Positions 16,603 through 48,804 of a stretch of DNA of 64,000 nt are shown here, one piece after another. Each line of letters opens with the position of its first letter. The stretch's first letter is position 1. Position numbers and translations under genes: made by a program. Location: the NCBI GenBank assembly GCA_964482725.1, contig CAYZYT010000001.1:186061-250060 (forward strand), written 5' to 3'. Source of the stretch: an uncultured bacterium (GTDB taxonomy: Bacteria > Omnitrophota > Omnitrophia > Omnitrophales > Aquincolibacteriaceae). Below the pieces are notes generated by a model. The model made no database searches. It was not told the origin of the DNA and saw only the letters and a program-made list of their open reading frames with translations.

Positions 16603-17031
16603 ATGGAAAAGAAAATTCTCGTTGTTCTTGTTCTCGTAATGGCTGTTTCTAGTGTTGGCATGGCGCGAAAATCGGACCAATACGATCAGGATGCGCGTGC
16701 TCAGGAAAAGGTCCAGAATGCCATGGATAAAGACGCCCAATCTCAAGAGAAAAGCCATCCGGCAAAGAATTTCGCCAAGGGCATCAAAGAAGTCACGTAT
16801 GATAATGTCCGGGATACTTTAAGTGACACGGGCGGATCCACGATGCATGAGAAACCGGTGGTCGGAACTTTGGACGGAACACAGCAGGCCGGAGAAAAAG
16901 TCGTCGATAACACCATCAAGGGCATCAAAAAGGTCGCGTCCCTCGGTTACGCAAAGAATGACAACTACGAGGTCCAGGAAGCCGAAAAAGGCTCCGGCGA
17001 CCCCGCCAAGATCAAACTCTTCCAGTTTTAG
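16603..17031 (+). CDS. Small secreted protein (signal peptide, Lys/Asp/Gln-rich), unknown function.
   Basis: N-terminal hydrophobic signal. Terminates at the hairpin at 17078. Confidence 0.5.
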   Translation: MEKKILVVLVLVMAVSSVGMARKSDQYDQDARAQEKVQNAMDKDAQSQEKSHPAKNFAKGIKEVTYDNVRDTLSDTGGSTMHEKPVVGTLDGTQQAGEKVVDNTIKGIKKVASLGYAKNDNYEVQEAEKGSGDPAKIKLFQF

Positions 17032-17077
17032 TCACACGATAGACTCCAGACTTCAGACCGAAGACTAAAATAAAAAG

Positions 17078-17106
17078 GCCAGGCTTAAAAAACCTGGCTT
17101 TTTTAT
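17078..17106. terminator. Bidirectional rho-independent terminator: GCCAGG-cttaaaaaa-CCTGGC followed by TTTTTTATT. It is flanked by an A-run on the other side.
   Basis: Lies between convergent genes, the 16603 plus-strand CDS and the giant minus-strand CDS. Confidence 0.6.
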
Positions 17107-17134
17107 TGTCCGGTTCTGATGACTGCAAGTCCGT

Positions 17135-20100
17135 TCAGTCCTGGCTGATGATACGCTCGGCGCCCAACAGGCAGAACGCGGTGCCTGCCAAAGAACCACC
17201 ACAGGCATTTGTCAAAACGAGGGCTTCCTGGACCGGAGCCGGGATCACTTTCCGTTTGAAGGATTCGCTGCGAAAAGGCAAGCGCCCCTTAGGAGAGCTT
17301 TTCTTGCGGGATTTTGAAGAAGACCCAAGCGACGGATCACTTCCCTTGTTATTACTTGGCGACAGGATCGCGGCCTCAAGCATCCCCGCGGTATCTTCTT
17401 TCTCCGCTTTTGCGGATTGATTCCGCCTCTGAGCCGCCCAGAAATCAGCGGCGGCAAACTTAAGCGATGGCTTCACGCTAACCCTCGGGGCAGAAGACGG
17501 AAGCGATACGGTCTGAGGCACTATCCCGGCGGCAGAAACGGCCGACGGTAATATTTCTTGCGCCATGATCGCAGGCTCCAGAGGGATCTCAACCGACGAT
17601 GCTATGAGAGGCGCAGCCTTTAACGCCACCGCCGCAAGAGGTGAAGGAACGCCTGCAGGCGCCACGATAATCCGTCTGATCTTAGCGGACGGGAAACCTT
17701 GGGCTTCCGGAAAGCTGACGACCATTTCTGAAATGTTCCAGTAAAGCGCGTCCGCCGGAATTGTAAAAATAAATTCCTTCGGAACGCCTCCCGTAGCCGG
17801 AAGAACGAATGGCTCCGAATAAACCGCCATGTTGTTGCTCCAGGAATGCTTCAGCTCGAACTTCGCACCCGTGATCGGCGTATCCGACTGGTAGGTGATC
17901 CGGATCTGGCGGTCCGACGCCCTGACGCTTTCGCTTAGTTTCCATGAAGTCGCTTTATACGCATCCCAATTAAAATTAGAAGCAGGCTTCTGCCCGATCA
18001 CAGACACGGGCGTTTGGGAATTCCAGATCGATTCGAGCTTCGCCGCTAACCCTTTATTCTCAAGATACCGGGTCATGTAATCCGGCCCCGTCCCAGTCAT
18101 CCCCAAGATGAACGTCGCGTTGTTATTGAAGACCTGGTCGGTGACCACCAAATTATTGTTCATGTTCTTGCCTTCCCAGAGGCCATGATCCGAAACCAGA
18201 TCTCGGTGGTTCGCGATAAGCTCCTGCAGAAGAGCTTCCACCTCCGCGGGACGGAACATATGCGCCGCACCCAAGTTGTAAACGGACGGCGTGGTTTCAA
18301 CGGAGAAAGACTGATCAAAGGCGATCTCCTTGATGCCCAGCGGGAAGTTGTAAACGATCTCGTAGCTACCATCCATGACATGAAAATTACGGATGGTCAT
18401 GTCCAAGGGTCCGCCGGCTTCACTGCCCGTTGCAAAAACAATTTCATCCAGATCGTTCAGAAAAGACTCCGCCGGGAGATTGATCGGCGCCGTACGCAAC
18501 GCCCCACCCGTATTCTCCAACGTTAAATTTATCGTGAGAACCGTTACGAGATCATTTCCGTATTTTTTCTTGAAATCGATCTTTGCCCCAAGAATCGGGG
18601 TGTGTGAAGAATAGTTCAATAGCAGGGTAAGGCCCGAAACGTCCATGCCCGATTCGACGAATGCCACGCCGATCCCTCGATTGTCCGTACTCGTGACATG
18701 CAACCGGGTCGCAGATTCCCGCTCCACAGTCATATCCCCGGCCCAATTGAACGTCACGACCGGACCTTGCAAAAGATCATGCGCCTGCACATCAAAACTT
18801 GCCGAAAGAAAACCCGGCTGTTCGTTCCGGTCCGCAAAATCGAGCTGAACATCCGTGTAGGTCTCGAGCATCTTTTTGAGATCCGGGTTCGTGAACTCCG
18901 GCATCAGAAGTGCGGGCCAATACATCTGGAAAGCCCCGCTGAACGGCGCCACGACTTGTCTCGTGGTGAGATCCTGCATGGTGTAGGAATGCGTCGAAAA
19001 ATTCAGTTTGGCGTAGGCGCTTGCCGGGAAGGTGTTGCCATACTGCAAGATAAGGAACAGAAGCGGCGCACTGCTTTCCGCTCCGAAATAATCGATCGTC
19101 CCTGACAAACTATGGTCCTGAATCTTCATGGTCCTGGAAAACGTATTCGTCGCGCCGTTATACATGGCCAGATAGCCGGCTCTTTGGTTTTCGATAAAGG
19201 TATTGATCTTGCCAAGGATGCCGCCGGCCCCGTGAATGGTCGTGTTGGTCGACAGAGACTCATCAAGCAGCGCGCCGTAGGCTACGGCCAGCGCATTGGT
19301 AAAATTCGTGTTGTCCTCAAAACTTACTTGCTGGCCGTAATCGCCACTCATCCGGATCCAATCGGATCCTGTATATTCAAACCATGGGAAAAGCCCCATA
19401 AAAGCAAGACTTTGATCCGCCTGGTCCACGAGAAGATGATCCATCATCGTATTCAAACGACTGATCGCTTCCGTTTTCGAGATCTTGGACGTGACAAGAT
19501 CCCCCGCCGCGATGGTCGCAAGCAAATACGCATAAAATCCGAAATTGGAAGGCTGGGTCTTTGCCTTCTGGAGCCATCCTTCCACGGGGTATTCGTGCGT
19601 CGTTTCGATCATGCCGAATGCGGGATCGAAATAAAGCAAGTTGATCTGCGTCAAAAGATCGGCGGCCGTCGTCATTTCCTGGGCTACGATCCGGTAATAA
19701 ACCGTGTTGCCGCGGTCGGCCATAGGATCCGGACAACTGATCTCGCCATATTGGTCGGCGACAAAAGAAAGCCCCTCCGGCTGCCAATCATTCGACATGA
19801 GACTCGTCCTGAACTGGACCTGATAACGCACGCCCTTCATCGCCCGGTCGAATTTGATCGTCCAGCTATTGGAAGAATTCGCGAATTGGGTGATCACGGG
19901 ACGCACGATCTCGATCGACGGCAGCGGATCTGTCGATCCGGCGGGCTCGATCGCCACGCGCTCAAGCGCTCCGTCTGCAGCATTAAAATAGCTCGTGATG
20001 TTCTTCGCGTTGGTCTTTGCGATAAGAACCCCGGAGGCATCGTATTCATAACGCATCAGCCGCTGAGTCCGGGCGACATCCGAGAATGCATCCTTGTATT

Positions 20101-21883
20101 GAACAACGCTTGTCCCGGGATGGTAGAAATAAGAGAACGCTATCTCACCCTCGGCGTTCGCGGTCTGCCGCTTCGCCCAGTCGCAAAGATTGGCAGCCGT
20201 ATCTTCGTAATGGTAATAAAAGTTCCCATCCGTATCCGCATTCAGAAGCGTTTTAGACTCGAGCCTTCCTGAGGCGTGGTAGGCATAGTTCGTCGTGTTC
20301 ACAAGAACGCCAGCGGCATTGTACTCGGACATTACAAGCAACACATCCGTCGCAGAGTAACTCTTGATGAACCTGGCCTGGTGGGTGTTCGGGAAATAGG
20401 ATTCAAAAATCTGATATGTCCCATCTTGATAGAAATTCTCCGTGAAGCCTTCGCTGTAGACAAAACGCCAGCCGGTCAGCTCTCCGTTCGAACGGATCTC
20501 TTCCACGGTGTAAGTCGCGCCCGACCGTTCATGAACGGAAAAAGCGCGATCCAGCGCAGAGATCAGCACCTCGGGCAGAAAAGCACCGCGGCCAAAAGCG
20601 GGTGAGGTTTCAGGCACTGAATAATCCTCGTTAGCGGCATCGACGAACTGAGGATCAGCAAGAACGTTCCCGCCGGTCCAGCCTTCCCCTGTTTTGGGGC
20701 TGATCGCCGGAGGAAGGTGCTGACCCGTAGCATCTCCTTTTTCCGTGTTATGAAAGAGGACATTCCCTTCCACCGCGAGTGCAGGCGTGGCGGTTTCTTC
20801 CCAGATCGACTGGACGATCTGGTGGGCCAAGATGTTGTTCCGCACCGCCGGGGCTTGCCCATTGAGGATCTGAATGCCGATCTTACTGGAAAAGCTTTCC
20901 GCAATTCTGACCCGGTACCACCTCCCGCTCACGTCAAAAGGCCCCGGGCTTGTCGCGGAGCCGTCATCCATCCAGAAGGTACTCGCCTCGGATCGATCCG
21001 CTAAAACAAGGAGATCTCCTAAAGGATCCTGAACCCGGGCACGGACCCAAGTCTTTCCACAATCATTGGAATATTCGATGTAGTAAGCATAGGCTCCCTG
21101 AGGATCCCGGATCTCGAGTTGGATCCCCTGCCCCGCCCTATAACGGAGCCCTGTGAGCTGGATGCTTTGCTCTGCCTCATAGCCTGTGATCGTGTTGTAG
21201 GCGATCGTATTTCCGGTTTTAGGTTCTTTGATGGCGATCGGATTCCCGCGGAAAAGATTTGCTTCGATCAGGATATCCGAGCCATTTCCGGAGACATAAA
21301 TCCCGGCACTTAAATTGAACAGGATCTTATTCTTGCGGACATGAACCTGGTCGCCTTCGATCTTGATCCCCGCCGCGGGGGTCTGCCCCAGCTCGTCGCG
21401 AGCGCCCGTCACGGTCAGATTTTCAATTGTGTTTTTCCCAAGCGCCCGGATCACGGAGGCGCCGGGCACATAATCGCCGTGAATGATCGTGGTCTCTGAA
21501 TTTTCTCCCCGGAGGTTCACCCCCTCCTTGAGCGTGATGCTTTCATGATAAGTTCCGGCATGAACATAAATAATATCTCCTGCCTCGGCCTGCTCGATGG
21601 CATCCTGGATCTTATCTCCTGGATGGACCTCAAGGGCTCCCTCAGGGATCGGATCGCCTTGGGCTTGAAGGTTCGGGGAGCCTAACGACAGAGGATTGGA
21701 GTTCTGGACCGCAACACCGGAGGGAATTTCATTCTGAGGAGCGGGTACGGTCTGTGCATTGGCCTGCTCCAGGGTAAGCGTCGGCACGGGTCGCTGAGCA
21801 TCGTTAAGGGTCAACTCGTTTGTGGCGGCAAGGCCGACGGGCACAGGGATGCTGCTGAAGATAAAAAAAACGGCTGTCCCCAT
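17135..21883 (-). CDS. Giant secreted multidomain protein (about 1583 aa). N-terminal right-handed beta-helix (pectate-lyase fold), then YD/RHS-like repeats, then a large (alpha/alpha)6 glycosidase-like (DUF3131-like) domain, with a C-terminal low-complexity tail.
   Basis: Signal peptide MGTAVFFIFSSIPVPVGLAA. Beta-helix-like repeats (NLTVTG, IYVSGNGSDILIEANLF). YD-like repeats. A sugar-hydrolase-like middle region. The ORF-track start at 22015 is an extension. Confidence 0.65.
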   Translation of the reverse strand: MGTAVFFIFSSIPVPVGLAATNELTLNDAQRPVPTLTLEQANAQTVPAPQNEIPSGVAVQNSNPLSLGSPNLQAQGDPIPEGALEVHPGDKIQDAIEQAEAGDIIYVHAGTYHESITLKEGVNLRGENSETTIIHGDYVPGASVIRALGKNTIENLTVTGARDELGQTPAAGIKIEGDQVHVRKNKILFNLSAGIYVSGNGSDILIEANLFRGNPIAIKEPKTGNTIAYNTITGYEAEQSIQLTGLRYRAGQGIQLEIRDPQGAYAYYIEYSNDCGKTWVRARVQDPLGDLLVLADRSEASTFWMDDGSATSPGPFDVSGRWYRVRIAESFSSKIGIQILNGQAPAVRNNILAHQIVQSIWEETATPALAVEGNVLFHNTEKGDATGQHLPPAISPKTGEGWTGGNVLADPQFVDAANEDYSVPETSPAFGRGAFLPEVLISALDRAFSVHERSGATYTVEEIRSNGELTGWRFVYSEGFTENFYQDGTYQIFESYFPNTHQARFIKSYSATDVLLVMSEYNAAGVLVNTTNYAYHASGRLESKTLLNADTDGNFYYHYEDTAANLCDWAKRQTANAEGEIAFSYFYHPGTSVVQYKDAFSDVARTQRLMRYEYDASGVLIAKTNAKNITSYFNAADGALERVAIEPAGSTDPLPSIEIVRPVITQFANSSNSWTIKFDRAMKGVRYQVQFRTSLMSNDWQPEGLSFVADQYGEISCPDPMADRGNTVYYRIVAQEMTTAADLLTQINLLYFDPAFGMIETTHEYPVEGWLQKAKTQPSNFGFYAYLLATIAAGDLVTSKISKTEAISRLNTMMDHLLVDQADQSLAFMGLFPWFEYTGSDWIRMSGDYGQQVSFEDNTNFTNALAVAYGALLDESLSTNTTIHGAGGILGKINTFIENQRAGYLAMYNGATNTFSRTMKIQDHSLSGTIDYFGAESSAPLLFLILQYGNTFPASAYAKLNFSTHSYTMQDLTTRQVVAPFSGAFQMYWPALLMPEFTNPDLKKMLETYTDVQLDFADRNEQPGFLSASFDVQAHDLLQGPVVTFNWAGDMTVERESATRLHVTSTDNRGIGVAFVESGMDVSGLTLLLNYSSHTPILGAKIDFKKKYGNDLVTVLTINLTLENTGGALRTAPINLPAESFLNDLDEIVFATGSEAGGPLDMTIRNFHVMDGSYEIVYNFPLGIKEIAFDQSFSVETTPSVYNLGAAHMFRPAEVEALLQELIANHRDLVSDHGLWEGKNMNNNLVVTDQVFNNNATFILGMTGTGPDYMTRYLENKGLAAKLESIWNSQTPVSVIGQKPASNFNWDAYKATSWKLSESVRASDRQIRITYQSDTPITGAKFELKHSWSNNMAVYSEPFVLPATGGVPKEFIFTIPADALYWNISEMVVSFPEAQGFPSAKIRRIIVAPAGVPSPLAAVALKAAPLIASSVEIPLEPAIMAQEILPSAVSAAGIVPQTVSLPSSAPRVSVKPSLKFAAADFWAAQRRNQSAKAEKEDTAGMLEAAILSPSNNKGSDPSLGSSSKSRKKSSPKGRLPFRSESFKRKVIPAPVQEALVLTNACGGSLAGTAFCLLGAERIISQD

Positions 21884-22219
21884 ACTTATCAATTTCAATT
21901 TATTGAAATGGGGGCGGCCCAAACTACATTTTTTGGAACAGAAATTAAAAGTTTGGGCGGTTAAAAGCGAAGTCATTTTACAGAAAAATCTTTTCAGCGA
22001 AGAAGGGGATCCCATGGAGTCTTTTTGTCACCTTTTCTCATCAGGAATATAGTTGCCGAAGGCTAACACACCGTCTGAAAAATGGCAAATAGCCCTCCCA
22101 GGAATCTTGGAAGGCAAGTCGCTCATTGTTTGAGATGATCCGTATCGCTATGAATTGCTAGAAGTGAATTCCTGGGACCTCAGGACAAAAATCGTTCTTT
22201 TGTATGGAGCGAAAGGAGA

Positions 22220-23983
22220 TCAGAGATTGAACTGCAGGTCGTAGAGTTTCTTGTACATCCCGCCCATGCGAAGGAGGAACTCGTTCGTTCCCTGCTGGAC
22301 GATACGTCCCTTGTCCATCACAAGAATGCGGTCAGCCTTCTGAATGGTGGAAAGACGATGGGCAATCACAAAAACCGTGCGGGCCTTCATGAGATTCTCC
22401 AAAGCGCCCTGCACTTCCTTTTCACTTTGCGTGTCAAGATGCGAGGTCGCTTCATCAAGGATCAGGATCGGAGGATCCTTAAGGAGTGCCCGGGCGATCG
22501 CGATCCGCTGGCGTTCGCCCCCTGAAAGCTTGAGTCCCCGGTCGCCGAGCGGCGTGTCATAACCTTGCGGCAGGGCTTCGATAAAATGATCGGCATACGC
22601 GATCTCCGCCGCGCGTTTAACATCTTCCAGACTCGCGTCCGGACGCCCGTATGCGATATTCTCCCGGATCGTACAATTGAACAAAACGGTCTCCTGCGAC
22701 ACGATCCCGATCTGCCTGCGCAAAGAATGGAGCGTCAGGTCCCGGACATCTCGACCATTGATCTTGATGACGCCCTCCACGGGATCATAGAAACGGAGAA
22801 GAAGGCTTACGAGCGTGCTCTTTCCGGAACCACTCGCCCCCACGAACGCGATCACTTCATTGTGCTTGGCCTTGATCTCAATATCCTTGAGCACCCACTT
22901 ATCGAATTCATAATAAAAACCGACGTGCTCATAGCTAATCTCGCGGATCGGCTCCGAAAAAATAATGGCATCGGACTTGTCATGGATCGTCGACTTGGCG
23001 TCCAGTATTTCAAAAATGCGCTGGCCCGAAGCGATCGATTGCTGGATGGTGCTGTTCACCCGGCTTATTTTTTTGAGAGGCTCGTAACAAACATAGAGCG
23101 CAATGAAAAAAGCGGCGAACCGTTCCGGCGACAGGTATTTCATCCCATACCACACCGCAAACGCGGCCCCAATCGCCCCGATCACTTCGATCAGAGGACG
23201 CTGGATGATCGTGATCTTGATGGTCCTTCGGAAAAATTCAAAAACGCTATTATTGATCTCCTCAAAACGGCGGATCTCCCCTTCTTCGCGGCCGAAGGCC
23301 TTCACGATATGGGCTCCGGCCAGGGTCTCGCCAATAAAGGAGGTGATGTCCCCGGTGCGCTCCTGCATCTTCTTCGTCAATTTGCGGAGCTGTTTTCCCA
23401 AAAGCACGATGGGGATCGCCACGACCGGGAAGATCACGATCGCGATAAGTGCGTACTTCCCGCCCCACATAAAAATAAAGGGGATGTTAAAAAGAAGGAC
23501 GAGCGGCTGCTTGATAAGATCGGTGATCACATCCGTGATCGCGCCCTGGATCTGACCGACGTCGTTAGTGATGCGGGAAAGAAAATCCCCGGTGCGACCT
23601 TTCGAGTAGAAATCATGCGAAAGATAAACCAGATGACGGTAGAGATCGTCCCGGACCTTGCGGACCGCAAGGATCCCCACATTGGCCATGTGATAGTTCG
23701 ACACGTAGTCAAAAAAACCGCGCAAAACGAAGACGCCGACCAAAATGATGGGGATCCAAATCATGGGCAACGCTACGGAGGTGATCTTGGGGAAATACTT
23801 CGAAAGAATGGGAATGTTATCAACAACGACCTGGTTCTTCTGAAAGAACCCTTTCGTGATCACATAGAGCGCGACCGAAACTAGCGAATTCGACAATGAA
23901 TATGCGAGCATGCAAAAAAAAGCGATGGCCATACGCCAGCGGTACGGCTTCACATAACCCAGCAGTCTTTTATAGATGTCCAT
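22220..23983 (-). CDS. msbA: ABC transporter permease/ATPase, MsbA-like lipid exporter.
   Basis: Six TM helices then an NBD with Walker A GASGSGKST, signature LSGGERQR and Walker B ILILDEAT. Start at MDIYKRL. Confidence 0.8.
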   Translation of the reverse strand: MDIYKRLLGYVKPYRWRMAIAFFCMLAYSLSNSLVSVALYVITKGFFQKNQVVVDNIPILSKYFPKITSVALPMIWIPIILVGVFVLRGFFDYVSNYHMANVGILAVRKVRDDLYRHLVYLSHDFYSKGRTGDFLSRITNDVGQIQGAITDVITDLIKQPLVLLFNIPFIFMWGGKYALIAIVIFPVVAIPIVLLGKQLRKLTKKMQERTGDITSFIGETLAGAHIVKAFGREEGEIRRFEEINNSVFEFFRRTIKITIIQRPLIEVIGAIGAAFAVWYGMKYLSPERFAAFFIALYVCYEPLKKISRVNSTIQQSIASGQRIFEILDAKSTIHDKSDAIIFSEPIREISYEHVGFYYEFDKWVLKDIEIKAKHNEVIAFVGASGSGKSTLVSLLLRFYDPVEGVIKINGRDVRDLTLHSLRRQIGIVSQETVLFNCTIRENIAYGRPDASLEDVKRAAEIAYADHFIEALPQGYDTPLGDRGLKLSGGERQRIAIARALLKDPPILILDEATSHLDTQSEKEVQGALENLMKARTVFVIAHRLSTIQKADRILVMDKGRIVQQGTNEFLLRMGGMYKKLYDLQFNL

Positions 23984-23998
23984 ACAAATACCCGTTCC

Positions 23999-24072
23999 CC
24001 GGATGGTGGATGGTGGATAATGCCCCTCAAAACAAAAAAACCGATCCGCCATCCGCCCTCCGCCATCCGACT
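23999..24072. repeat. Family F2 element, copy 3 (GGATGGTGGATGGTGG ... CCGCCATCCGCCCTCCGCCATCCG), in the msbA leader.
   Basis: Shares GGATGGCGGAGGGCG with copy 1. Confidence 0.5.
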
Positions 24073-24189
24073 CCCGGATCAGTTCGACCGTAACTGTAAC
24101 ATATCCGTTGACACTGCTCAAGGTTATGATTTAAGCTTCTTCGCAATTGCTCTTCTCCAAGATAACTCCTCTCATATGAAGGATTTAGG

Positions 24190-25131
24190 ATGACAAACTC
24201 TCTCAAAGTCGGCGTGGTCGGCGTAGGACATCTCGGCAAGGAACATGCGCGGATCTATCGCGACCTCCCTGAAGCGGAACTGGTCGGGATCTCAGACCTG
24301 GATCCCGCCAAAGAGGACAAAGCCAAGGAGCTCGGAACTACCTATTACAGAGATTTCCGGGATCTTATCGGAAAAGTCGATGCCGTGAGCATCGCGACGC
24401 CCACCTCCACCCATTACGCGGTCGCCAAGGAATTCCTGAAAGCCGGCATCCATACCCTCATTGAAAAACCGATCACCTTGAAGCTGACCGAAGCGGACGA
24501 GCTTCTCGAGCTTGCCCGTCAAAAAAATCTGTCCCTCCAGGTCGGGCATATCGAACGACACAATCCCGGATTCAAACGCGTCCGGGAGATCGCAAAAAAT
24601 ATCCGTTTCCTTGAGATCCACCGCCTCGGACCTTTTACGGGACGCATCAACGACTGTGGCGTCGTCCTTGATCTCATGATCCATGACCTGGATATTGTGA
24701 TGGGGCTCGTCGATTCCCCCGTTGCAGGCTTCGACGCCCTCGGCGTCAATGTCCTTACACCCTTCGAGGACATCGCGAACGTGCGCCTCAAGTTCAAGAA
24801 CGGCGCGGTCGCCAACATCACCGCCTCACGTCTGACATTCGAAAAGCAGCGAAAAATCCGCATTTTCCAGGAAGATGCTTACATTTCGCTCGATTATGGC
24901 GCTCAGACCGGCAAGATCATTCGTAAGTTCGGGAACGAAGTTATTCAGGAGGAGGTGTCGATCGAAAAAGCCGAACCTCTCAAAGAAGAGCTGAAGTCCT
25001 TCCTGAAGGGGATCAGCACGGGTCAGAGCATCGGAAAACCCGATACGGCAGCCCGCGACGCCCTTGCGATCGCGCTCGAGATCGCCCGCAAGATCCAGGC
25101 CGAGCATCCCAAACCAAGCGCGAAGGTCTGA
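24190..25131 (+). CDS. Gfo/Idh/MocA family NAD(P)-dependent oxidoreductase.
   Basis: N-terminal Rossmann motif VGVVGVGHLG and the EKP motif. Adjacent to lpxB. Confidence 0.8.
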   Translation: MTNSLKVGVVGVGHLGKEHARIYRDLPEAELVGISDLDPAKEDKAKELGTTYYRDFRDLIGKVDAVSIATPTSTHYAVAKEFLKAGIHTLIEKPITLKLTEADELLELARQKNLSLQVGHIERHNPGFKRVREIAKNIRFLEIHRLGPFTGRINDCGVVLDLMIHDLDIVMGLVDSPVAGFDALGVNVLTPFEDIANVRLKFKNGAVANITASRLTFEKQRKIRIFQEDAYISLDYGAQTGKIIRKFGNEVIQEEVSIEKAEPLKEELKSFLKGISTGQSIGKPDTAARDALAIALEIARKIQAEHPKPSAKV

Positions 25132-25141
25132 TTTTCCATTT

Positions 25142-25219
25142 GTCATCCCCGAAGGCTTCTATCGGGGATCCAGGATGAAACCCGCTCTGGATTCCCGCTT
25201 AAAACATGCGGGAATGACA
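25142..25219. repeat. Family F1 element, copy 3 (TGTCATCCCCGAAGG...CGGGAATGACAGC).
   Basis: Inverted termini GTCATCCC / GGGAATGAC. Lies between the oxidoreductase gene and the lpxB start. Confidence 0.5.
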
Positions 25220-25243
25220 GCACAAATAGGACGAATCACTGAA

Positions 25244-26383
25244 ATGTCTAAAAAAATCTTCCTCGTTGCCTGCGAAGCCTCGGGCGATCTTCACGGCGCT
25301 CATCTTATTTCTGAGATCCAAAAGCTTGCTCCGGATACATTTTTTTGCGGCGTCGGCGGTGCCAAGATGCAGGCGATGGGCATGCAGATCTTTAGCGACA
25401 TGACAAAGATCTCGGCGCTAGGCCTAGGCGACGTGCTCCGGAATTATTTCAAATATCTCAAGATCTTCAACGAAACTCTCAAAAACATCCGGAACGAAAA
25501 ACCGGACGCCGTGATCCTGATCGATTCTCCGGCTTTCAATCTCCGGCTCGCCAAAAAACTCCCCGCAGCCGCGCCTCTTCTCTATTATATCTCCCCGCAG
25601 CTTTGGGCCTGGGGAAAGCGACGGATCCATATCGTCAAGAAGCACATCCGTGAAATGCTCGTGATCCTTCCGTTCGAAAAAGATTTCTACGAAAAAGAAG
25701 GCGTGGCCGTGAAGTTCGTGGGGCATCCCTTACTTGACGCGATTCCCGAGCTTCCGGCGCCGGCGGTCCTCCGGGCGAAGATCGGCATCGCTCCGGATCA
25801 AAAAGCGATCGGCCTTTTTTCGGGTTCAAGGGAAAAAGAGGTGAAGCGCATCCTGCCGGTCATGCTCCGCGCGGCGGCTCATCTCCTGCAGGATTTTCCG
25901 GAAGCGGTCTTTTTTATTTCAAAATCCTCGAACGTGCGCCCCGAAGTCTATGAGGAACTGCTTCAGGCATCGCCTGTCAAAGTGGAATGTCCGTCCGCGC
26001 CGTTCTATGAACTTGTGAAGGCTATGGATTTTGCCTACGTTGCTTCCGGGACCGCGACGCTTGAGACCGCGCTCATCGGAACGCCGTTCTTTCTTCTTTA
26101 TAAGGCCAGCTGGTCCACCTATTTCCTGGGAAAGCACCTGATCAAAGTCCCCTACCTCGGGCTGGTGAACCTCCTTGCCGATACCCGCGTGATCCCGGAA
26201 TTCATCCAGCAAGACGCCCATCCCGAGACACTCGCCCACGAGGCCAGAGTCTTCCTCCGGAGCCCGGAACTTCAGGAGAAAATGAAAGCGGAATTCCGCG
26301 AAGTCAGAGAGAAACTCGGAGAAAAAGGCGCCAGTGCCCGCGCCGCGAAAGAAGTCTGCGATTTCTTGGCCCAAAGACCGTAA
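25244..26383 (+). CDS. lpxB: Lipid-A-disaccharide synthase.
   Basis: The N-terminus MSKKIFLVACEASGDLHG and full-length LpxB homology. The ORF track over-extends to 25064. Confidence 0.85.
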   Translation: MSKKIFLVACEASGDLHGAHLISEIQKLAPDTFFCGVGGAKMQAMGMQIFSDMTKISALGLGDVLRNYFKYLKIFNETLKNIRNEKPDAVILIDSPAFNLRLAKKLPAAAPLLYYISPQLWAWGKRRIHIVKKHIREMLVILPFEKDFYEKEGVAVKFVGHPLLDAIPELPAPAVLRAKIGIAPDQKAIGLFSGSREKEVKRILPVMLRAAAHLLQDFPEAVFFISKSSNVRPEVYEELLQASPVKVECPSAPFYELVKAMDFAYVASGTATLETALIGTPFFLLYKASWSTYFLGKHLIKVPYLGLVNLLADTRVIPEFIQQDAHPETLAHEARVFLRSPELQEKMKAEFREVREKLGEKGASARAAKEVCDFLAQRP

Positions 26384-35018: not shown

Positions 35019-36350
35019 CTAGAATAGATAGCTTAACTGCCCGCCTAGCGTGTTTTGCTGATTTTTTCCTCCAAACACATTTCCATCGCCGGCATGGGCA
35101 TAATCGATCCGATATTCCGCTCGGGCGATCACGTTCTCCCACGGCTTATACTCAAGCGTCAGGGTATTGGCAACGTCCCTGGCAGCTCCCGCGGTGCCAG
35201 CTCCGGTCCAATTCCGGTAACGCTCGCTATCATCGAAATATTCGAAACGGTAAGCCGCCGCGATCTTCTCGGTGAATTGGTACCGCGCATAGGCCGCATA
35301 ATCGAACCACTGCGCCGTTTGGAAATTGTCGTCCATCGCAATATCCACGCGCGGTTGATTCCCGATATCGAATTCTCCGGCGAAAGCGAGCTTCGGGGTC
35401 GCGTTCCAGCTGAGAACGTTTGTGGCCAAAAAGCGCTTCCCGCCACTTGCAGCGTTGTTCTCAGGCCCAAAATAGGTCGCCGTGGTCCATTTGACGTCCT
35501 TGAGCGGGCTGAAGCTGAACGCGTTTTCAAACGTCTTGTACGAGTTGTTGTCGATATCGTTATCCCAACCGTTATTGATACCTTGATAGAGGGTCAGGTA
35601 ATCGTTAAACAGAGCATACGTCGCCCGAACCCCGGTATGCGTAAAAGGGATCGCATAACCGAACGACACCGAACGGCTGATATTCCAGTTGAACGGACCC
35701 TCGATCACTTCATTTCCCGCCAAAGTGACCATCCGACCGGCTTTGATATCTACGGTGTGCGGCAGAACATCGTTATTGGCCCAAAAACCAAGCGGCGCGA
35801 TGATTTGGACATAGGCCTGCTCGACGGCAAAAGGTGAGTTGCCGCTGCTCCCACCATTCGGTGTCCCGAGATTATCCTTCTGGAAATTATTAAAGTAATA
35901 GCGAGCGTCGCTCCCCATCATCATATCAATGCGGAATCCGGCGCCGCCTTCAGGGTTCGCGACTTTCTCGAACCAGAGCTTGGCCGCATTCATGGAAAAA
36001 GTGTCAGCGGCCTTATCCGTAAGCGAACGCCCCACATTTCCATTTTGCTGCGGCGCCCCAACCTTATTTTGGAATTGGGTTTCCACATAACCGCCCATAT
36101 GGATATCCTCCATGGCCCGGAGAAAACCTTTCTTCTCATCGGCCACCGGCGGGATATAAGTCGTCTGGGCGCCCGGCGCTGGCTTTTCCAGGGTCATCAT
36201 TTTGCTGTCCATGACCTCCAGTTTCCGGCTCAGCGCATCGATCTGCGCTTTGAGCGCCGCAACCTCACTGTCCTCGGCGAAGCCAAGCGCAGACCCCATA
36301 CACATCCCGATCAAGCAAAACCCTGAAAAACCACGGAATAGCCTGTTCAT
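35019..36350 (-). CDS. Outer-membrane beta-barrel porin with an N-terminal coiled-coil segment (OprO/P-like or DcaP-like). It ends in ...LSYLF.
   Basis: Signal peptide. Coiled coil DSEVAALKAQIDALSRKLEVMD. Alternating amphipathic strands. C-terminal Phe. Start MNRLF with AGGAG upstream. It lies 41 bp downstream of glnK in the same orientation. Confidence 0.6.
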   Translation of the reverse strand: MNRLFRGFSGFCLIGMCMGSALGFAEDSEVAALKAQIDALSRKLEVMDSKMMTLEKPAPGAQTTYIPPVADEKKGFLRAMEDIHMGGYVETQFQNKVGAPQQNGNVGRSLTDKAADTFSMNAAKLWFEKVANPEGGAGFRIDMMMGSDARYYFNNFQKDNLGTPNGGSSGNSPFAVEQAYVQIIAPLGFWANNDVLPHTVDIKAGRMVTLAGNEVIEGPFNWNISRSVSFGYAIPFTHTGVRATYALFNDYLTLYQGINNGWDNDIDNNSYKTFENAFSFSPLKDVKWTTATYFGPENNAASGGKRFLATNVLSWNATPKLAFAGEFDIGNQPRVDIAMDDNFQTAQWFDYAAYARYQFTEKIAAAYRFEYFDDSERYRNWTGAGTAGAARDVANTLTLEYKPWENVIARAEYRIDYAHAGDGNVFGGKNQQNTLGGQLSYLF

Positions 36351-36391
36351 AAGCTTCTCCTTTTCTGTGCTCGTATTGAAATCGACCGGGA

Positions 36392-36733
36392 TCACCCGAT
36401 CGCCACTTCGCCTACTTCGCCAGTACGAATGCGAAAACACTCTTTGAGATCGAGAACAAAGATCTTGCCGTCCCCGATATGCCCCGTCCGCGAGCCTTCC
36501 TTGATCGCATCCACCGTCGCTTTCACGAAGGCTTCATTGACCGCGATCTCAAGTTTCACTTTTCGGAGGAGCCTTCCTGCTTCTTTATGGCCCCGGTAGA
36601 CCTCCGAAATGCCCTTCTGACGCCCGCGCCCCAAAACACTTGTGACCGTCACGAGATGGATCTCTTTTTCTTCAAGGATCCGAAGCACTTCATCCACCCG
36701 GTCCGGTTGGATCACTGCAATGATATATTTCAT
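36392..36733 (-). CDS. glnK: Nitrogen regulatory protein P-II.
   Basis: P-II fold motifs (GRGRQKG T-loop region, DGKIFV, IRTGE). Directly downstream of amtB. Confidence 0.85.
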   Translation of the reverse strand: MKYIIAVIQPDRVDEVLRILEEKEIHLVTVTSVLGRGRQKGISEVYRGHKEAGRLLRKVKLEIAVNEAFVKATVDAIKEGSRTGHIGDGKIFVLDLKECFRIRTGEVGEVAIG

Positions 36734-46263: not shown

Positions 46264-48804
46264 TTAAAAACTACGGCTCAAACTAAATTCAAAACGTCCG
46301 TTTTTGTTTTTGGTATCCCGGTTCGAAATGGGAAGACCATAATAAAAAGCCAAAGGCCCGATCGGTGTCTTGACCTTGATCCCGGGGCCGACGCTCACGG
46401 CGAATTTCCCGAAATCGATATTGTAAGAATCCTTGCTAACATTACCCGCGTCAATAAAAAACACCCCGCGGAATGCGTCAAGATACGGCAGCGGAAAAGT
46501 GTAGTCCAGGTTCACGATGGCCATGGTCTGACCGCCCACAGCTTCCCCGCCCTCCTGAGGCCCCACGCGACGGTAATTGAAACCACGCACGGTGCCGAGA
46601 CCGCCCGCAAAGAATCGGTCGTAGGCGGGGGTCGTCGAAGTTTTCCCGAAGGATTGCGCGGAAGCCAAACGGGCCTGAAATTCGATCTGATGCTTTTTAT
46701 GGAACGTAAGATATTCCGTGTACCCGGATCTCAGGATATAATACTCCTGGTCGCCTCCAAGGAAACTCCCGATCAGCTCACCGGCAAGATTGATCACGCG
46801 CCCCTTGGTGGGGTTGAACACATTGTCACGATTGTCAAAAGTCGTGAACGCGCGAAGTCTTGAGAGCCAATCCGGTCCTTCAAACTCCGTGACAGAAACA
46901 GGCGCGCTGCTCGAGACGTCCCGAAGTTCCACACGTTCCAACGTATACCCGCCGCCCGCCCGGAGGACATCTTTAAAGAGGCGTGACAACGTCGTGGAAG
47001 CCCCCATTCGCCGCTGACCAAAATCGGTGTTCTTATTGTCTTGGGAAGTGGCAAAGAGATTTGTGCCCCAGGAAATCGGTTTATTGAAAAGGTACGGCTC
47101 CACGAAGCTGACGTCATATTCCTGATTGATCGTTCCCATTTGCCCGCGGATCGAAAGCGACTGCCCGCCGCCCGTGAAACGGGGCCAGTTGAGGATATCG
47201 AAATTCCTCTGGGAGATCTCGGCAAAACCCATGAAGGTATCAATGGAACTGACACCGCCCCCGAAGGAAAGTTCCCCGGTGCGTTTTTCTTTCACTCGGA
47301 AAATGAGGTCCTTGCGGTTCGCCCCGGCGTCCGTGGGTTCGGTATCATACGTGATCTCTTCAAAATAGTTCAGATTCTGGAGACGCTCCTTGGACTTCTC
47401 GATCTTCTTGCCGTCAAAGCGCTCGCCCGGTCGAATGCGTAGTTCGCGACGAATGACCTTGTCACGGGTCTTGGTGTTCCCGCGGATCTGGACCTTCTCG
47501 ACAAAATAGAGGTCCCCTTCTTGGATCTCGTACATGATATCCACTTTACCGCTATCGCGATTCAGTTTTACGTCAGGCACCACGCGAGCTTCAATATAGC
47601 CTTCACTGGCGTAGAACTGACGTATCTTTTCAATATCCTGAGCGACGTAGAATTGAGAATAGGTCAGGCCGGGGAGCATTTCAAGCTGCTGCCAAAGTTC
47701 GGACTCGGGGAAAATCGTGTTCCCTTTGAACTTGATCTCGCCGGTGAGATAGTGTTGCCCCTCATCAATCTTGATCAGGATCTTGATCGTGTTCTGGTCC
47801 TTGTTATAATCGAATTCGGGAAGCACCTTGACGTCCAGATAACCTTCTTTCTGGTAGAAAAAGCTGATCTTCTCAAGGTCTTTCTCAAAGTCACCCTCCT
47901 TGAATGTCCCGAAGAGGAACCACTTCTTTTCTTTCGTCTTCATGAGCCTTTGAAGCTGCTTGACCTTGAAGGCTTGCACCCCTTCAAAAGAGATCTTGGT
48001 GATCTTAAACTTTTTCCCCTCGAAGACCTTGATCGTAATCACAGCCTCTTTGGTCTGAGGATCCACGTTCACCGTCGTCTGAAGATCTACGAACCGGAAG
48101 CCCTTGTCCGCGTAAAGCTTGCGGATCTCTTCTTCGCCCTTTTTGACGGCCTTGCGATCCAGGATCTGCCCTTCGATCACGCCAAGCGTCTTGCGGAGCT
48201 TATCTTCTTTAAAGGAAGTGGCCCCTTCGATCGTAATCTGCTTAACGATCGGCTTCTCCTCCACCTCCACGATCAATTTATACCCTTCAGGGAGTTCTTC
48301 CACCTCGAGCTTCACATCCTCAAAAAATCCAGTCGCATAGAGCCGTTTGATATCCTCGTTAACGGTCTGCTGCTTGAGAGCAAGACCCTGCTTCGTTTGG
48401 ATCTTACTTAAAATAGTATTCGTGCTCACGATGCGATTCCCACGAACATCCATCGCCACGACTGTTTTGGGCGTTGGCTGGGGCTCCGGAGCGGAAGCCG
48501 CGGGTTGGGAATTAGAACTTGAAGCGAGAGCCTCGGGCGCTGCAACCGGAGCCACCTCTTCCTTCGTATCGGAGGGAACTGTCTCAGCCGCCGGTGGGAC
48601 AGCAGGACTTGAAACAGAAGACTCTGTCGCTGGAGCCCCTGCAGAGGGGGCTGTCGCATTTTCATTCGCAGGTGCCGAGGCCGTTGCCGAAGAAGCCCCA
48701 ACAGCCTCAGGCATTGTTTTCTCAGCCGCATCTTCGGCAAGAACCGGAAAAGCATGGAACGCGCAAAAAGATATCCCTAAAAAAAGCACTATCAAACGCT
48801 TCAT
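46264..48804 (-). CDS. bamA: Outer membrane protein assembly factor BamA. A roughly 100-aa Ala/Pro/Ser-rich low-complexity linker follows the signal peptide.
   Basis: POTRA repeats and a C-terminal Omp85 barrel ending RFEFSLSRSF. Confidence 0.9.
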   Translation of the reverse strand: MKRLIVLFLGISFCAFHAFPVLAEDAAEKTMPEAVGASSATASAPANENATAPSAGAPATESSVSSPAVPPAAETVPSDTKEEVAPVAAPEALASSSNSQPAASAPEPQPTPKTVVAMDVRGNRIVSTNTILSKIQTKQGLALKQQTVNEDIKRLYATGFFEDVKLEVEELPEGYKLIVEVEEKPIVKQITIEGATSFKEDKLRKTLGVIEGQILDRKAVKKGEEEIRKLYADKGFRFVDLQTTVNVDPQTKEAVITIKVFEGKKFKITKISFEGVQAFKVKQLQRLMKTKEKKWFLFGTFKEGDFEKDLEKISFFYQKEGYLDVKVLPEFDYNKDQNTIKILIKIDEGQHYLTGEIKFKGNTIFPESELWQQLEMLPGLTYSQFYVAQDIEKIRQFYASEGYIEARVVPDVKLNRDSGKVDIMYEIQEGDLYFVEKVQIRGNTKTRDKVIRRELRIRPGERFDGKKIEKSKERLQNLNYFEEITYDTEPTDAGANRKDLIFRVKEKRTGELSFGGGVSSIDTFMGFAEISQRNFDILNWPRFTGGGQSLSIRGQMGTINQEYDVSFVEPYLFNKPISWGTNLFATSQDNKNTDFGQRRMGASTTLSRLFKDVLRAGGGYTLERVELRDVSSSAPVSVTEFEGPDWLSRLRAFTTFDNRDNVFNPTKGRVINLAGELIGSFLGGDQEYYILRSGYTEYLTFHKKHQIEFQARLASAQSFGKTSTTPAYDRFFAGGLGTVRGFNYRRVGPQEGGEAVGGQTMAIVNLDYTFPLPYLDAFRGVFFIDAGNVSKDSYNIDFGKFAVSVGPGIKVKTPIGPLAFYYGLPISNRDTKNKNGRFEFSLSRSF

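Follow-up and report, generated by a model that had tools for sequence, protein, structure and literature searches.

A Long Omnitrophota Protein, Predicted to Be Exported, Carries a Clan GH-S Barrel Related to GH192 and Split by a Nested β-Sandwich

In a 64,000-nucleotide stretch of DNA from an uncultured Omnitrophota bacterium (GenBank assembly GCA_964482725.1, contig CAYZYT010000001.1, positions 186,061 to 250,060; hereafter the window), a minus-strand open reading frame (ORF) encodes a multidomain protein of ~1600 residues. We found that this protein contains an (α/α)6 barrel of clan GH-S (the SGL clan), whose nearest characterized relatives are endo-β-1,2-glucanases of glycoside hydrolase family GH192, and that the barrel is divided into two parts by a β-sandwich. 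We consider it probable that the gene product is an exported, envelope-associated modular carbohydrate-active protein, with a divergent GH192 relative as its catalytic part. An initial annotation, made from the sequence alone, had described a secreted protein with a β-helix, YD-like repeats, and a glycosidase-like region of about 400 aa, and had left its function unknown. The features of the gene are listed below, with residue numbers that refer to the 1582-aa form (start ATG 21883) unless the 1626-aa form is named.

17135-22015, minus strand: full ORF, unbroken; 1626 aa from the first ATG, stop codon (17135-17137) included
21884-22015, minus strand: putative N-terminal extension of 44 aa; it includes the ancestral n-region (SLKRFFCK) and an insertion of 28 aa
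21824-21883, minus strand: hydrophobic region (h-region) of the signal peptide and predicted cleavage site (…PVPVGLA↓ATNE), from hydropathy and alignment
21644-21823, minus strand: conserved leader, aa 21-80, NELTLNDAQRPVPTLTLEQANAQ…IPSGVAVQNSNPLS, from alignment with homologs
20519-21643, minus strand: right-handed parallel β-helix, aa 81-455, from hidden Markov models (HMMs), AlphaFold2, and Foldseek
20894-21187, minus strand: β-sandwich of ~100 aa nested in the β-helix, aa ~233-330, from homolog comparison (predicted local distance difference test score, pLDDT, ~50-70)
19919-20518, minus strand: a helix and, behind it, a short YD-like β-hairpin stretch, aa 456-655, with ~5-6 YD-like units
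19673-19918, minus strand: immunoglobulin (Ig)/Fn3-like β-sandwich directly before the barrel, aa 656-737 (modelled β strands, pLDDT 54-77; conserved in the sub-clade)
18794-19672, minus strand: barrel part 1, aa 738-1030, with D857, E936, F985, and the PGFLSAS motif
19313-19315, minus strand: codon of D857 (EeSGL1 D149), motif FEDNTN
19076-19078, minus strand: codon of E936 (EeSGL1 E221), motif FGAESS
18929-18931, minus strand: codon of F985 (EeSGL1 F274), motif GAFQMYWP
18368-18793, minus strand: jelly-roll β-sandwich in a barrel loop, resembling a carbohydrate-binding module (CBM), aa 1031-1172 (142 aa; model pLDDT ~87-96)
18008-18367, minus strand: barrel part 2, aa 1173-1292, with Y1178
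18350-18352, minus strand: codon of Y1178 (EeSGL1 Y324), motif IVYNFPLG
17648-18007, minus strand: second β-sandwich, aa 1293-1412, a paralog of the inserted one (local hmmsearch; modelled β strands)
17138-17647, minus strand: conserved low-complexity tail, aa 1413-1582, with a basic cluster followed by LVLTNACGGSLAGTAFCLLGAERIISQD

Fold and Sequence Relationships of the Barrel

Direct searches of domain libraries, which the initial annotation had proposed as a check, gave no family for the barrel, and its homologs likewise matched no Pfam model. When the whole protein and eight hand-cut segments of it were scanned with Pfam and NCBIfam, no match was obtained to the barrel, the sandwiches, the Ig-like domain, or the tail, and phmmer with the whole protein found no match in the PDB. 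The suggested likeness to DUF3131 was not upheld, as PF11329 gave no match at any threshold tried (E ≤ 10), whether the full protein, a segment of it, or a homolog was scanned. PF10091 ("Glycoamylase", GH144-type) matched only marginally and in distant relatives: P0164 scored 26.7 bits (cutoff 27; E 4.6e-6), and a single sequence of alignment A1 reached E 0.0058.

Relatives of known structure were found only by profile searches. When a profile of seven homologs was compared with the PDB, the sole match was 8XUJ (E 8.6e-18), and a diverse profile of 22 sequences matched the same entry across the catalytic domain (chain residues 46-440 of 447) with E 2.1e-49. The next matches of the latter profile were GH189 (E 8.7e-13) and the cyclic β-1,2-glucan synthases (~6e-4), and GH144, GH162, and GH194 were not detected by it in the PDB. 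8XUJ is EeSGL1 from Endozoicomonas elysicola, a characterized GH192 enzyme. This family of anomer-inverting endo-β-1,2-glucanases is recent: it was established in 2025 on three small enzymes, namely EeSGL1 and, from a second marine bacterium, Photobacterium gaetbulicola, PgSGL1 and PgSGL2 (Nakajima et al. 2025, PMC12102758). Intermediate members of the barrel family aligned with 8XUJ at 25-37% identity (E 1e-20 to 1e-88), and full-length EeSGL1 was 25-29% identical to many family members and 37% identical to P0164.

The AlphaFold2 model of aa 655-1425 (pLDDT 85.9; predicted template modelling score, pTM, 0.81) showed an (α/α)6 barrel superimposable on members of clan GH-S, so that structure prediction and fold search agreed with the glycosidase-like domain that had been proposed from the sequence. 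After the top match, the fold search gave figures of 43.4 for GH189, 40.1 for Cgs, 37.2, 36.8, and 36.4 for GH144, 37.0 for GH162, and 32.6 for GH194, and Foldseek agreed with these structural neighbours. A barrel therefore exists in the region of about 400 aa initially described, but it is not contiguous, being split by the 142-aa β-sandwich at aa 1031-1172.

The clan Glu, Phe, and Tyr are common to the window barrel and the other families of clan GH-S, namely GH144 (CpSGL, XcSGL), GH162 (TfSGL), GH189 (the transglycosylation domain of TiCGS, and Cgs), and GH194 (PgSGL3). However, the sequence kinship of these families to the window barrel is much weaker than that of GH192, and in GH162 and GH189 the catalytic base or nucleophile is placed differently. 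With the characterized GH192 enzymes, the window protein shares the domain-wide profile match, four key residues (see below), and an N-terminal signal peptide. In contrast to these enzymes, which are single-domain proteins of ~440 aa, it carries its barrel at aa 738-1292 of a much longer chain, and this barrel is split and represents a subfamily found almost exclusively in Omnitrophota. On sequence grounds, we assign the barrel to a divergent branch of clan GH-S that has expanded in Omnitrophota and attaches to GH192, either as a part of it or as a sister family.

To assess the size of this branch, 1.84 billion representatives (clusters at 50% identity) were searched exhaustively with HMMER. 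At E ≤ 1e-3 the search returned 294 clusters, of which 136 reached E ≤ 1e-30. By comparison, a word-indexed homology search with alignment A1 retrieved three fragments only.

Conservation of the Catalytic Residues

In EeSGL1, E221 is the general acid and D149 the base candidate, both checked by mutation, and the mutagenesis primers in the supplement of the same study confirm the motifs AVDNGN and ANESR (PMC12102758). The clan-defining residues E221, F274, and Y324 of EeSGL1 correspond to E239, F286, and Y367 of XcSGL (PMC12102758, Table S3). HMM and BLAST alignments placed D149, E221, F274, and Y324 of EeSGL1 at D857, E936, F985, and Y1178 of the window protein, respectively, and these four columns were invariant in 22 of 22 diverse family members, at identities down to 22%. 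The barrel thus has both the Glu/Phe/Tyr set of clan GH-S and the acid/base pair of GH192. Since the four key columns are invariant among the 22 members, the alignments provide good evidence for a catalytically competent barrel.

By analogy with EeSGL1, E936 would act as the general acid and D857 as the general base of an anomer-inverting endo-hydrolysis, while F985 would line subsite −1 and Y1178 would stack on the sugar in subsite −3. The function left unknown in the initial annotation is hence narrowed, through the conservation of all catalytic residues, to that of a probable endo-acting, inverting glycoside hydrolase. The likeliest substrate class would be β-1,2-glucan or a close β-glucan, located on or released from other cells or belonging to the cell's own envelope.

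β-Sandwiches Within and Behind the Barrel

The inserted β-sandwich enters the barrel after the conserved PGFLSAS motif and before Y1178, the equivalent of the subsite −3 Tyr. In Foldseek it resembled the jelly rolls of CBM22, CBM11, and Cry toxins, and a β-sandwich profile gave no significant family in the PDB and Pfam (CBM_6 at E 0.051 in one member). We therefore call the domain CBM-like by predicted fold only. The C-terminal domain of P0005, a homolog of 2163 aa, shared 39% identity with it. The β-rich domains expected near the C-terminus were also recovered: the second sandwich behind the barrel proved to be a paralog of the inserted one, as aa 1324-1390 matched the insert part of the profile in a local hmmsearch, and the two sandwiches were 26% identical (alignment A5).

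A sandwich copy lay inside the barrel in only 18 of the best 150 representatives (P0001-P0006, P0022-P0032, and P0038, where P0001 is the window protein). The distant homolog P0009 and most of the best 150 representatives have a contiguous barrel followed by one to four copies of a β-sandwich of ~130 aa. Because the insertion adjoins Y1178, we infer that the inserted domain is placed to extend or gate the substrate cleft. Together with the downstream sandwich, it would probably extend or gate a glycan-binding surface.

Proposed Function and Alternatives

Several observations weigh against the assignment of the protein as an envelope-associated relative of the GH192 endo-β-1,2-glucanases. In a pairwise comparison, the window barrel and EeSGL1 were only 21% identical (E 3e-9), which is near the between-family level in clan GH-S. 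The cleft could be reshaped or blocked by the 142-aa insertion, which lies beside the subsite −3 Tyr. No sophorose-type transporter, β-glucosidase, or phosphorylase flanks the gene, whose neighbours are housekeeping genes, and the layout of the C-terminal tail is reversed with respect to known sorting signals, which run from a motif through a transmembrane segment to a basic end. Furthermore, PgSGL4, a "Group 4" protein of the clan with 1142 aa that combines a β-propeller, a barrel, and two putative CBMs, keeps the clan residues, yet showed no activity on β-1,2-glucan, and no substrate was found for it (PMC12102758). Given this precedent, the specificity of EeSGL1 cannot be carried over safely to the window barrel. 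PgSGL4 and the window protein are alike in being multidomain, with a signal peptide and C-terminal carbohydrate-binding-like domains; PgSGL4 differs in its other accessory domains, in having no barrel insertion, and in lacking the acidic base-candidate residue that the window protein keeps.

These points leave room for a less likely alternative that nevertheless deserves serious consideration, in which the barrel is a clan GH-S enzyme acting on a different substrate, such as another β-glucan, a cell-wall glycan of prey or host, or an exopolysaccharide, or is a GH189-like transglycosylase. The low identity to EeSGL1, the precedent of Group 4, and a change of cleft shape by the insertion would all be in keeping with it. 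Moreover, the Omnitrophota literature connects long proteins with cell-wall degradation, and GH189 is structurally almost as close as GH192, which would suit transglycosylation. On the other hand, all characterized enzymes among the top eight structural neighbours act on β-1,2-glucan, the profile match to GH192 (2e-49) is far better than that to GH189 (9e-13), and the GH192 acid/base pair is invariant together with the Phe and Tyr. Activity on β-1,2-glucan or a close relative of it remains our preferred explanation.

The initial annotation had considered the product either a surface polysaccharide-processing or an adhesin-type protein. A mainly non-catalytic, adhesin- or lectin-like surface protein, whose modules would do no more than bind glycans so that the cell can attach to host or prey cells, could account for the many binding-type modules (the β-helix, the YD-like strip, the Ig-like domain, and the two CBM-like sandwiches), for the giant relatives with Ig-like repeats, some of which are annotated as "Ig-like domain repeat protein", and for the location of the gene outside any catabolic operon. 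We give this possibility only a slim chance, since the catalytic Asp/Glu and the pocket Phe/Tyr are invariant at 22-40% identity, which argues for selection on catalysis and not on binding alone. Of the two proposals, a pure adhesin is thus disfavoured, and surface polysaccharide processing is the best reading. In a polysaccharide-processing protein, the β-helix, the YD-like strip, and the Ig-like domain may serve as extra polysaccharide-binding or spacer modules.

β-Helix and YD-Like Stretch

The pectate-lyase-fold β-helix noted in the initial annotation was borne out by weak HMM matches and by a confident AlphaFold2 model (pLDDT >90). The region matched Pfam Beta_helix PF13229 with E 1.9e-5 (24.8 bits; cutoff 25.9) and the NosD-type model TIGR04247 with E 1.4e-13 (50 bits; cutoff 300). 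In Foldseek, it gave generic matches with probability 1.0 to the helices of PL31, PL6, GH87, and CE8, and also matched phage tailspike helices. The model and these matches place it in the pectate-lyase-like right-handed β-helix superfamily, and no specific enzyme family (PL1/3/6/9/31, GH28/87, CE8, or NosD) could be assigned by HMM; Pectinesterase reached E 0.082, and the β-helix profile found nothing better than E 0.067 in the PDB. Structure prediction, another of the checks suggested at the outset, thus yielded models of the barrel, the sandwiches, and the helix.

The sandwich nested in the β-helix was present in P0051, P0028, P0007, P0002, P0008, and P0009, and absent from P0003, P0004, P0010, P0024, P0041, P0050, and P0053. 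A domain-in-domain insertion is hence seen twice in one protein, as a sandwich in the β-helix and as a sandwich in the barrel.

The YD-like repeats were also recovered, with a TIGR01643 match at aa 605-632 of 24.3 bits, above the cutoff of 15.8 bits, whereas Pfam RHS_repeat reached E 0.09 at best. The structural model of aa 456-655 was of low confidence. Homologs of this stretch are the YD regions found immediately ahead of the same barrel in P0037 (aa 41-860), P0055, P0063, P0040, and P0036. The combination of domains is therefore not unusual within Omnitrophota, as YD repeats, the barrel, and the same sandwich recur in these five proteins.

As in RHS/YD-repeat proteins, the window protein has a few YD-type β-hairpin repeats; it has no shell-length array, RHS core, or toxin tip. 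An RHS/YD polymorphic toxin, or a fusion produced by assembly or frameshift, has practically no likelihood in our view, even though one YD-repeat HMM matches and the length and mosaic architecture are unusual: the YD-like stretch (~150-200 aa) falls far short of an RHS shell; no RHS core, PAAR, or toxin domain appeared in the Pfam and NCBIfam scans; and the ORF is the same in two independent assemblies and colinear with its homologs. A typical RHS toxin, which would have overturned the initial annotation, was thus rejected as far as sequence data allow. As to the ORF itself, the identical 1582-aa protein (P0001) is found in NCBI, on a contig of 356 kb, and in an independent Logan assembly of run SRR12261223, and P0001 is colinear with P0004 across aa 332-1425 and with more than 15 further sub-clade members. 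Since it is identical in independent assemblies and colinear with homologs, the long ORF is real and intact and is no frameshift or assembly fusion.

Start Codon, Export Signals, and C-Terminal Tail

The minus-strand frame is open from 22015 to the stop codon at 17135-17137 and encodes 1582 aa from ATG 21883, one residue fewer than the 1583 initially given, a trivial difference. Database gene calls start at ATG 21883, downstream of the 28-aa insertion. However, the 44 aa encoded ahead of this ATG share homology with the N-termini of relatives ("SLKRFFCK…" as compared with "SIKRFFCK…"), and for this reason the true start is probably ATG 22015, which would give the form of 1626 aa. The insertion, TAQTFNFCSKKCSLGRPHFNKLKLISMG (84 nt; 28 aa), breaks up the ancestral h-region of the signal peptide. 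Apart from the window protein, only P0029 has it, and there it is kept at the amino-acid level. A repeated mobile element as the source of the 84 nt was ruled out, as no further copy was found in the window or in the fetched loci.

Consistent with the signal peptide reported earlier, no other 19-aa segment encoded by the ORF is as hydrophobic as the h-region (Kyte-Doolittle 1.86). Cleavage probably occurs after "GLA", which aligns with the "SFA↓" site of homologs, and the product is predicted to be a Sec-type exported multidomain protein. The leader that follows (NELTLNEAQRPVPTLTLEQANAQ…IPSGVAVQNSNPLS) was conserved at 47-72% identity in ~20 long proteins with otherwise differing architectures.

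At the other end of the protein, the tail is rich in Ser, Lys, and Ala and closes with KSRKKSSPKGRLPFRSESFKRK…LVLTNACGGSLAGTAFCLLGAERIISQD. A basic cluster is followed by a weakly hydrophobic 21-aa segment (hydropathy 1.55) with two conserved Cys and then by an acidic end. The tail was conserved in P0021, P0024, P0027, P0007, P0025, and P0004, with the ending "…LPFRSE..KR…LVLTNACGG…GTAFCxLGAExIxGQD", and occurred on proteins both with and without the barrel. A Ser/Lys-rich tail with a terminal hydrophobic segment and no canonical PEP-CTERM or LPXTG had been noted before, and our scans agreed with this: the tail gave no NCBIfam or Pfam match, and no PEP-CTERM, LPXTG, GlyGly-CTERM, or type IX secretion system (T9SS) C-terminal domain signal was recognized in it. 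The tail may represent a lineage-specific anchoring or sorting signal; like the conserved leader, it is probably an export or retention signal.

Distribution of the Subfamily and Shared Cassettes

The species genomes of GTDB were scanned with the subfamily motif GAFQ[MIL][YLF]WPx[LI], which gave 69 loci, 45 of them titled Omnitrophota or Omnitrophica, 19 "uncultured bacterium", and 5 with other names. At least 13 metagenome-assembled genomes (MAGs) carry two to three copies. Judged by this motif, the subfamily appears almost confined to Omnitrophota MAGs. Many barrel relatives sit within proteins of 2,000-7,976 aa, and YD repeats often come before the barrel. Proteins that lack the barrel, such as P0007, can also have the leader, the β-helix module, and the tail, and from this pattern we infer that the long proteins of Omnitrophota are mosaics of shared cassettes.

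The phylum is known for giant and long surface proteins (West-Roberts et al. 2023 preprint; 2026 complete-genome preprint). Such proteins resemble the window protein in having a signal peptide, a possible membrane segment, and a mosaic of β-helix, Ig-like, and lectin-like domains. At ~1.6 kaa, the window protein itself is far under the "giant" range, although its barrel relatives reach 7976 aa. A term search of the two preprints gave no mention of β-1,2-glucanase-type (GH-S/GH192) domains, and the paper that defined GH192 (PMC12102758) makes no mention of Omnitrophota.

These data extend GH192 by a large divergent branch of ~290 clusters, concentrated in Candidatus Omnitrophota and typically embedded in long surface proteins, with one sub-clade in which a binding-type domain is nested within the catalytic barrel beside the substrate-stacking Tyr. 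The branch is a concrete candidate subfamily for CAZy curators. A barrel of ~420 aa with named catalytic residues also provides a testable biochemical handle on the large exported proteins of the phylum.

In other bacteria, β-1,2-glucans serve as periplasmic or symbiosis glycans. As a target, β-1,2-glucan would fit the predatory or host-dependent lifestyle proposed for Omnitrophota. A bolder and distinctly unlikely extension is that the protein is an Omnitrophota-specific surface-displayed enzyme of putatively predatory or host-dependent ultra-small bacteria, which would cut β-1,2-glucans (osmoregulated periplasmic or cyclic) or related envelope glycans of prey or host, and that the leader and the Cys-containing tail would form an undescribed export/anchoring pair or serve as recombination handles for cassette swapping at hypervariable loci.

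In the context of P0005 (L002:6612-7706 and L002:17665-19112), a phage-type integrase gene stands immediately upstream of the homolog and an AbiEi/AbiEii toxin-antitoxin pair lies nearby, and this location hints that some long-protein genes travel on mobile DNA.

Genomic Neighbourhood

The other features of the window considered here were as follows.

16603-17031, plus strand: small secreted protein of 142 aa, with a signal peptide, a Lys/Asp/Glu-rich body, and the C-terminus …KIKLFQF
17078-17098, no strand assigned: GC-rich hairpin with an A-run and a T-run at either side, a terminator for both convergent genes
22220-24121, minus strand: MsbA-type ABC exporter
25064-26383, plus strand: LpxB
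35019-36440, minus strand: OmpL-like porin
46264-48804, minus strand: BamA (five POTRA domains and Omp85)

The small opposite-strand gene and the common bidirectional terminator described in the initial annotation were both present. The small protein had no Pfam family and was ~70% identical in related genomes, where it adjoins MsbA or homoserine dehydrogenase, with or without the big gene. Since in L011 it adjoins MsbA with no big gene between them, the small neighbour is not functionally tied to the big gene.

The flanking genes for aspartate kinase, threonine synthase, homoserine dehydrogenase, and MsbA encode proteins that fall into 90%-identity clusters with Omnitrophota MAG proteins (e.g., of RIFOXYB12_FULL_50_7). 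A comparison of the neighbourhood among relatives, which had likewise been suggested, revealed a variable slot between MsbA and the small protein (window 16603-24121, as compared with L016:1574-8226 and L011:11867-14301). In RIFOXYB12_FULL_50_7 (L016), this slot holds a homolog of 1293 aa with a contiguous barrel, a different architecture, and 38% identity, and in MAG JAZDJU01 (L011) the slot is empty and a 2461-aa homolog lies beyond LpxB. The flanking genes are 84-95% identical among these genomes, as compared with only 38-58% for the big proteins. The gene therefore lies in a variable slot of a conserved core region. No gene was common to the contexts of P0001, P0005, and P0003, and operon-based functional inference was dropped because the neighbourhoods of homologs are not conserved.

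As BamA, the OmpL-like porin, LpxB, and MsbA are encoded in the window, the gene content indicates that the organism has a two-membrane envelope with a lipid-A-containing outer membrane. These outer-membrane genes bear on where the big protein ends up.

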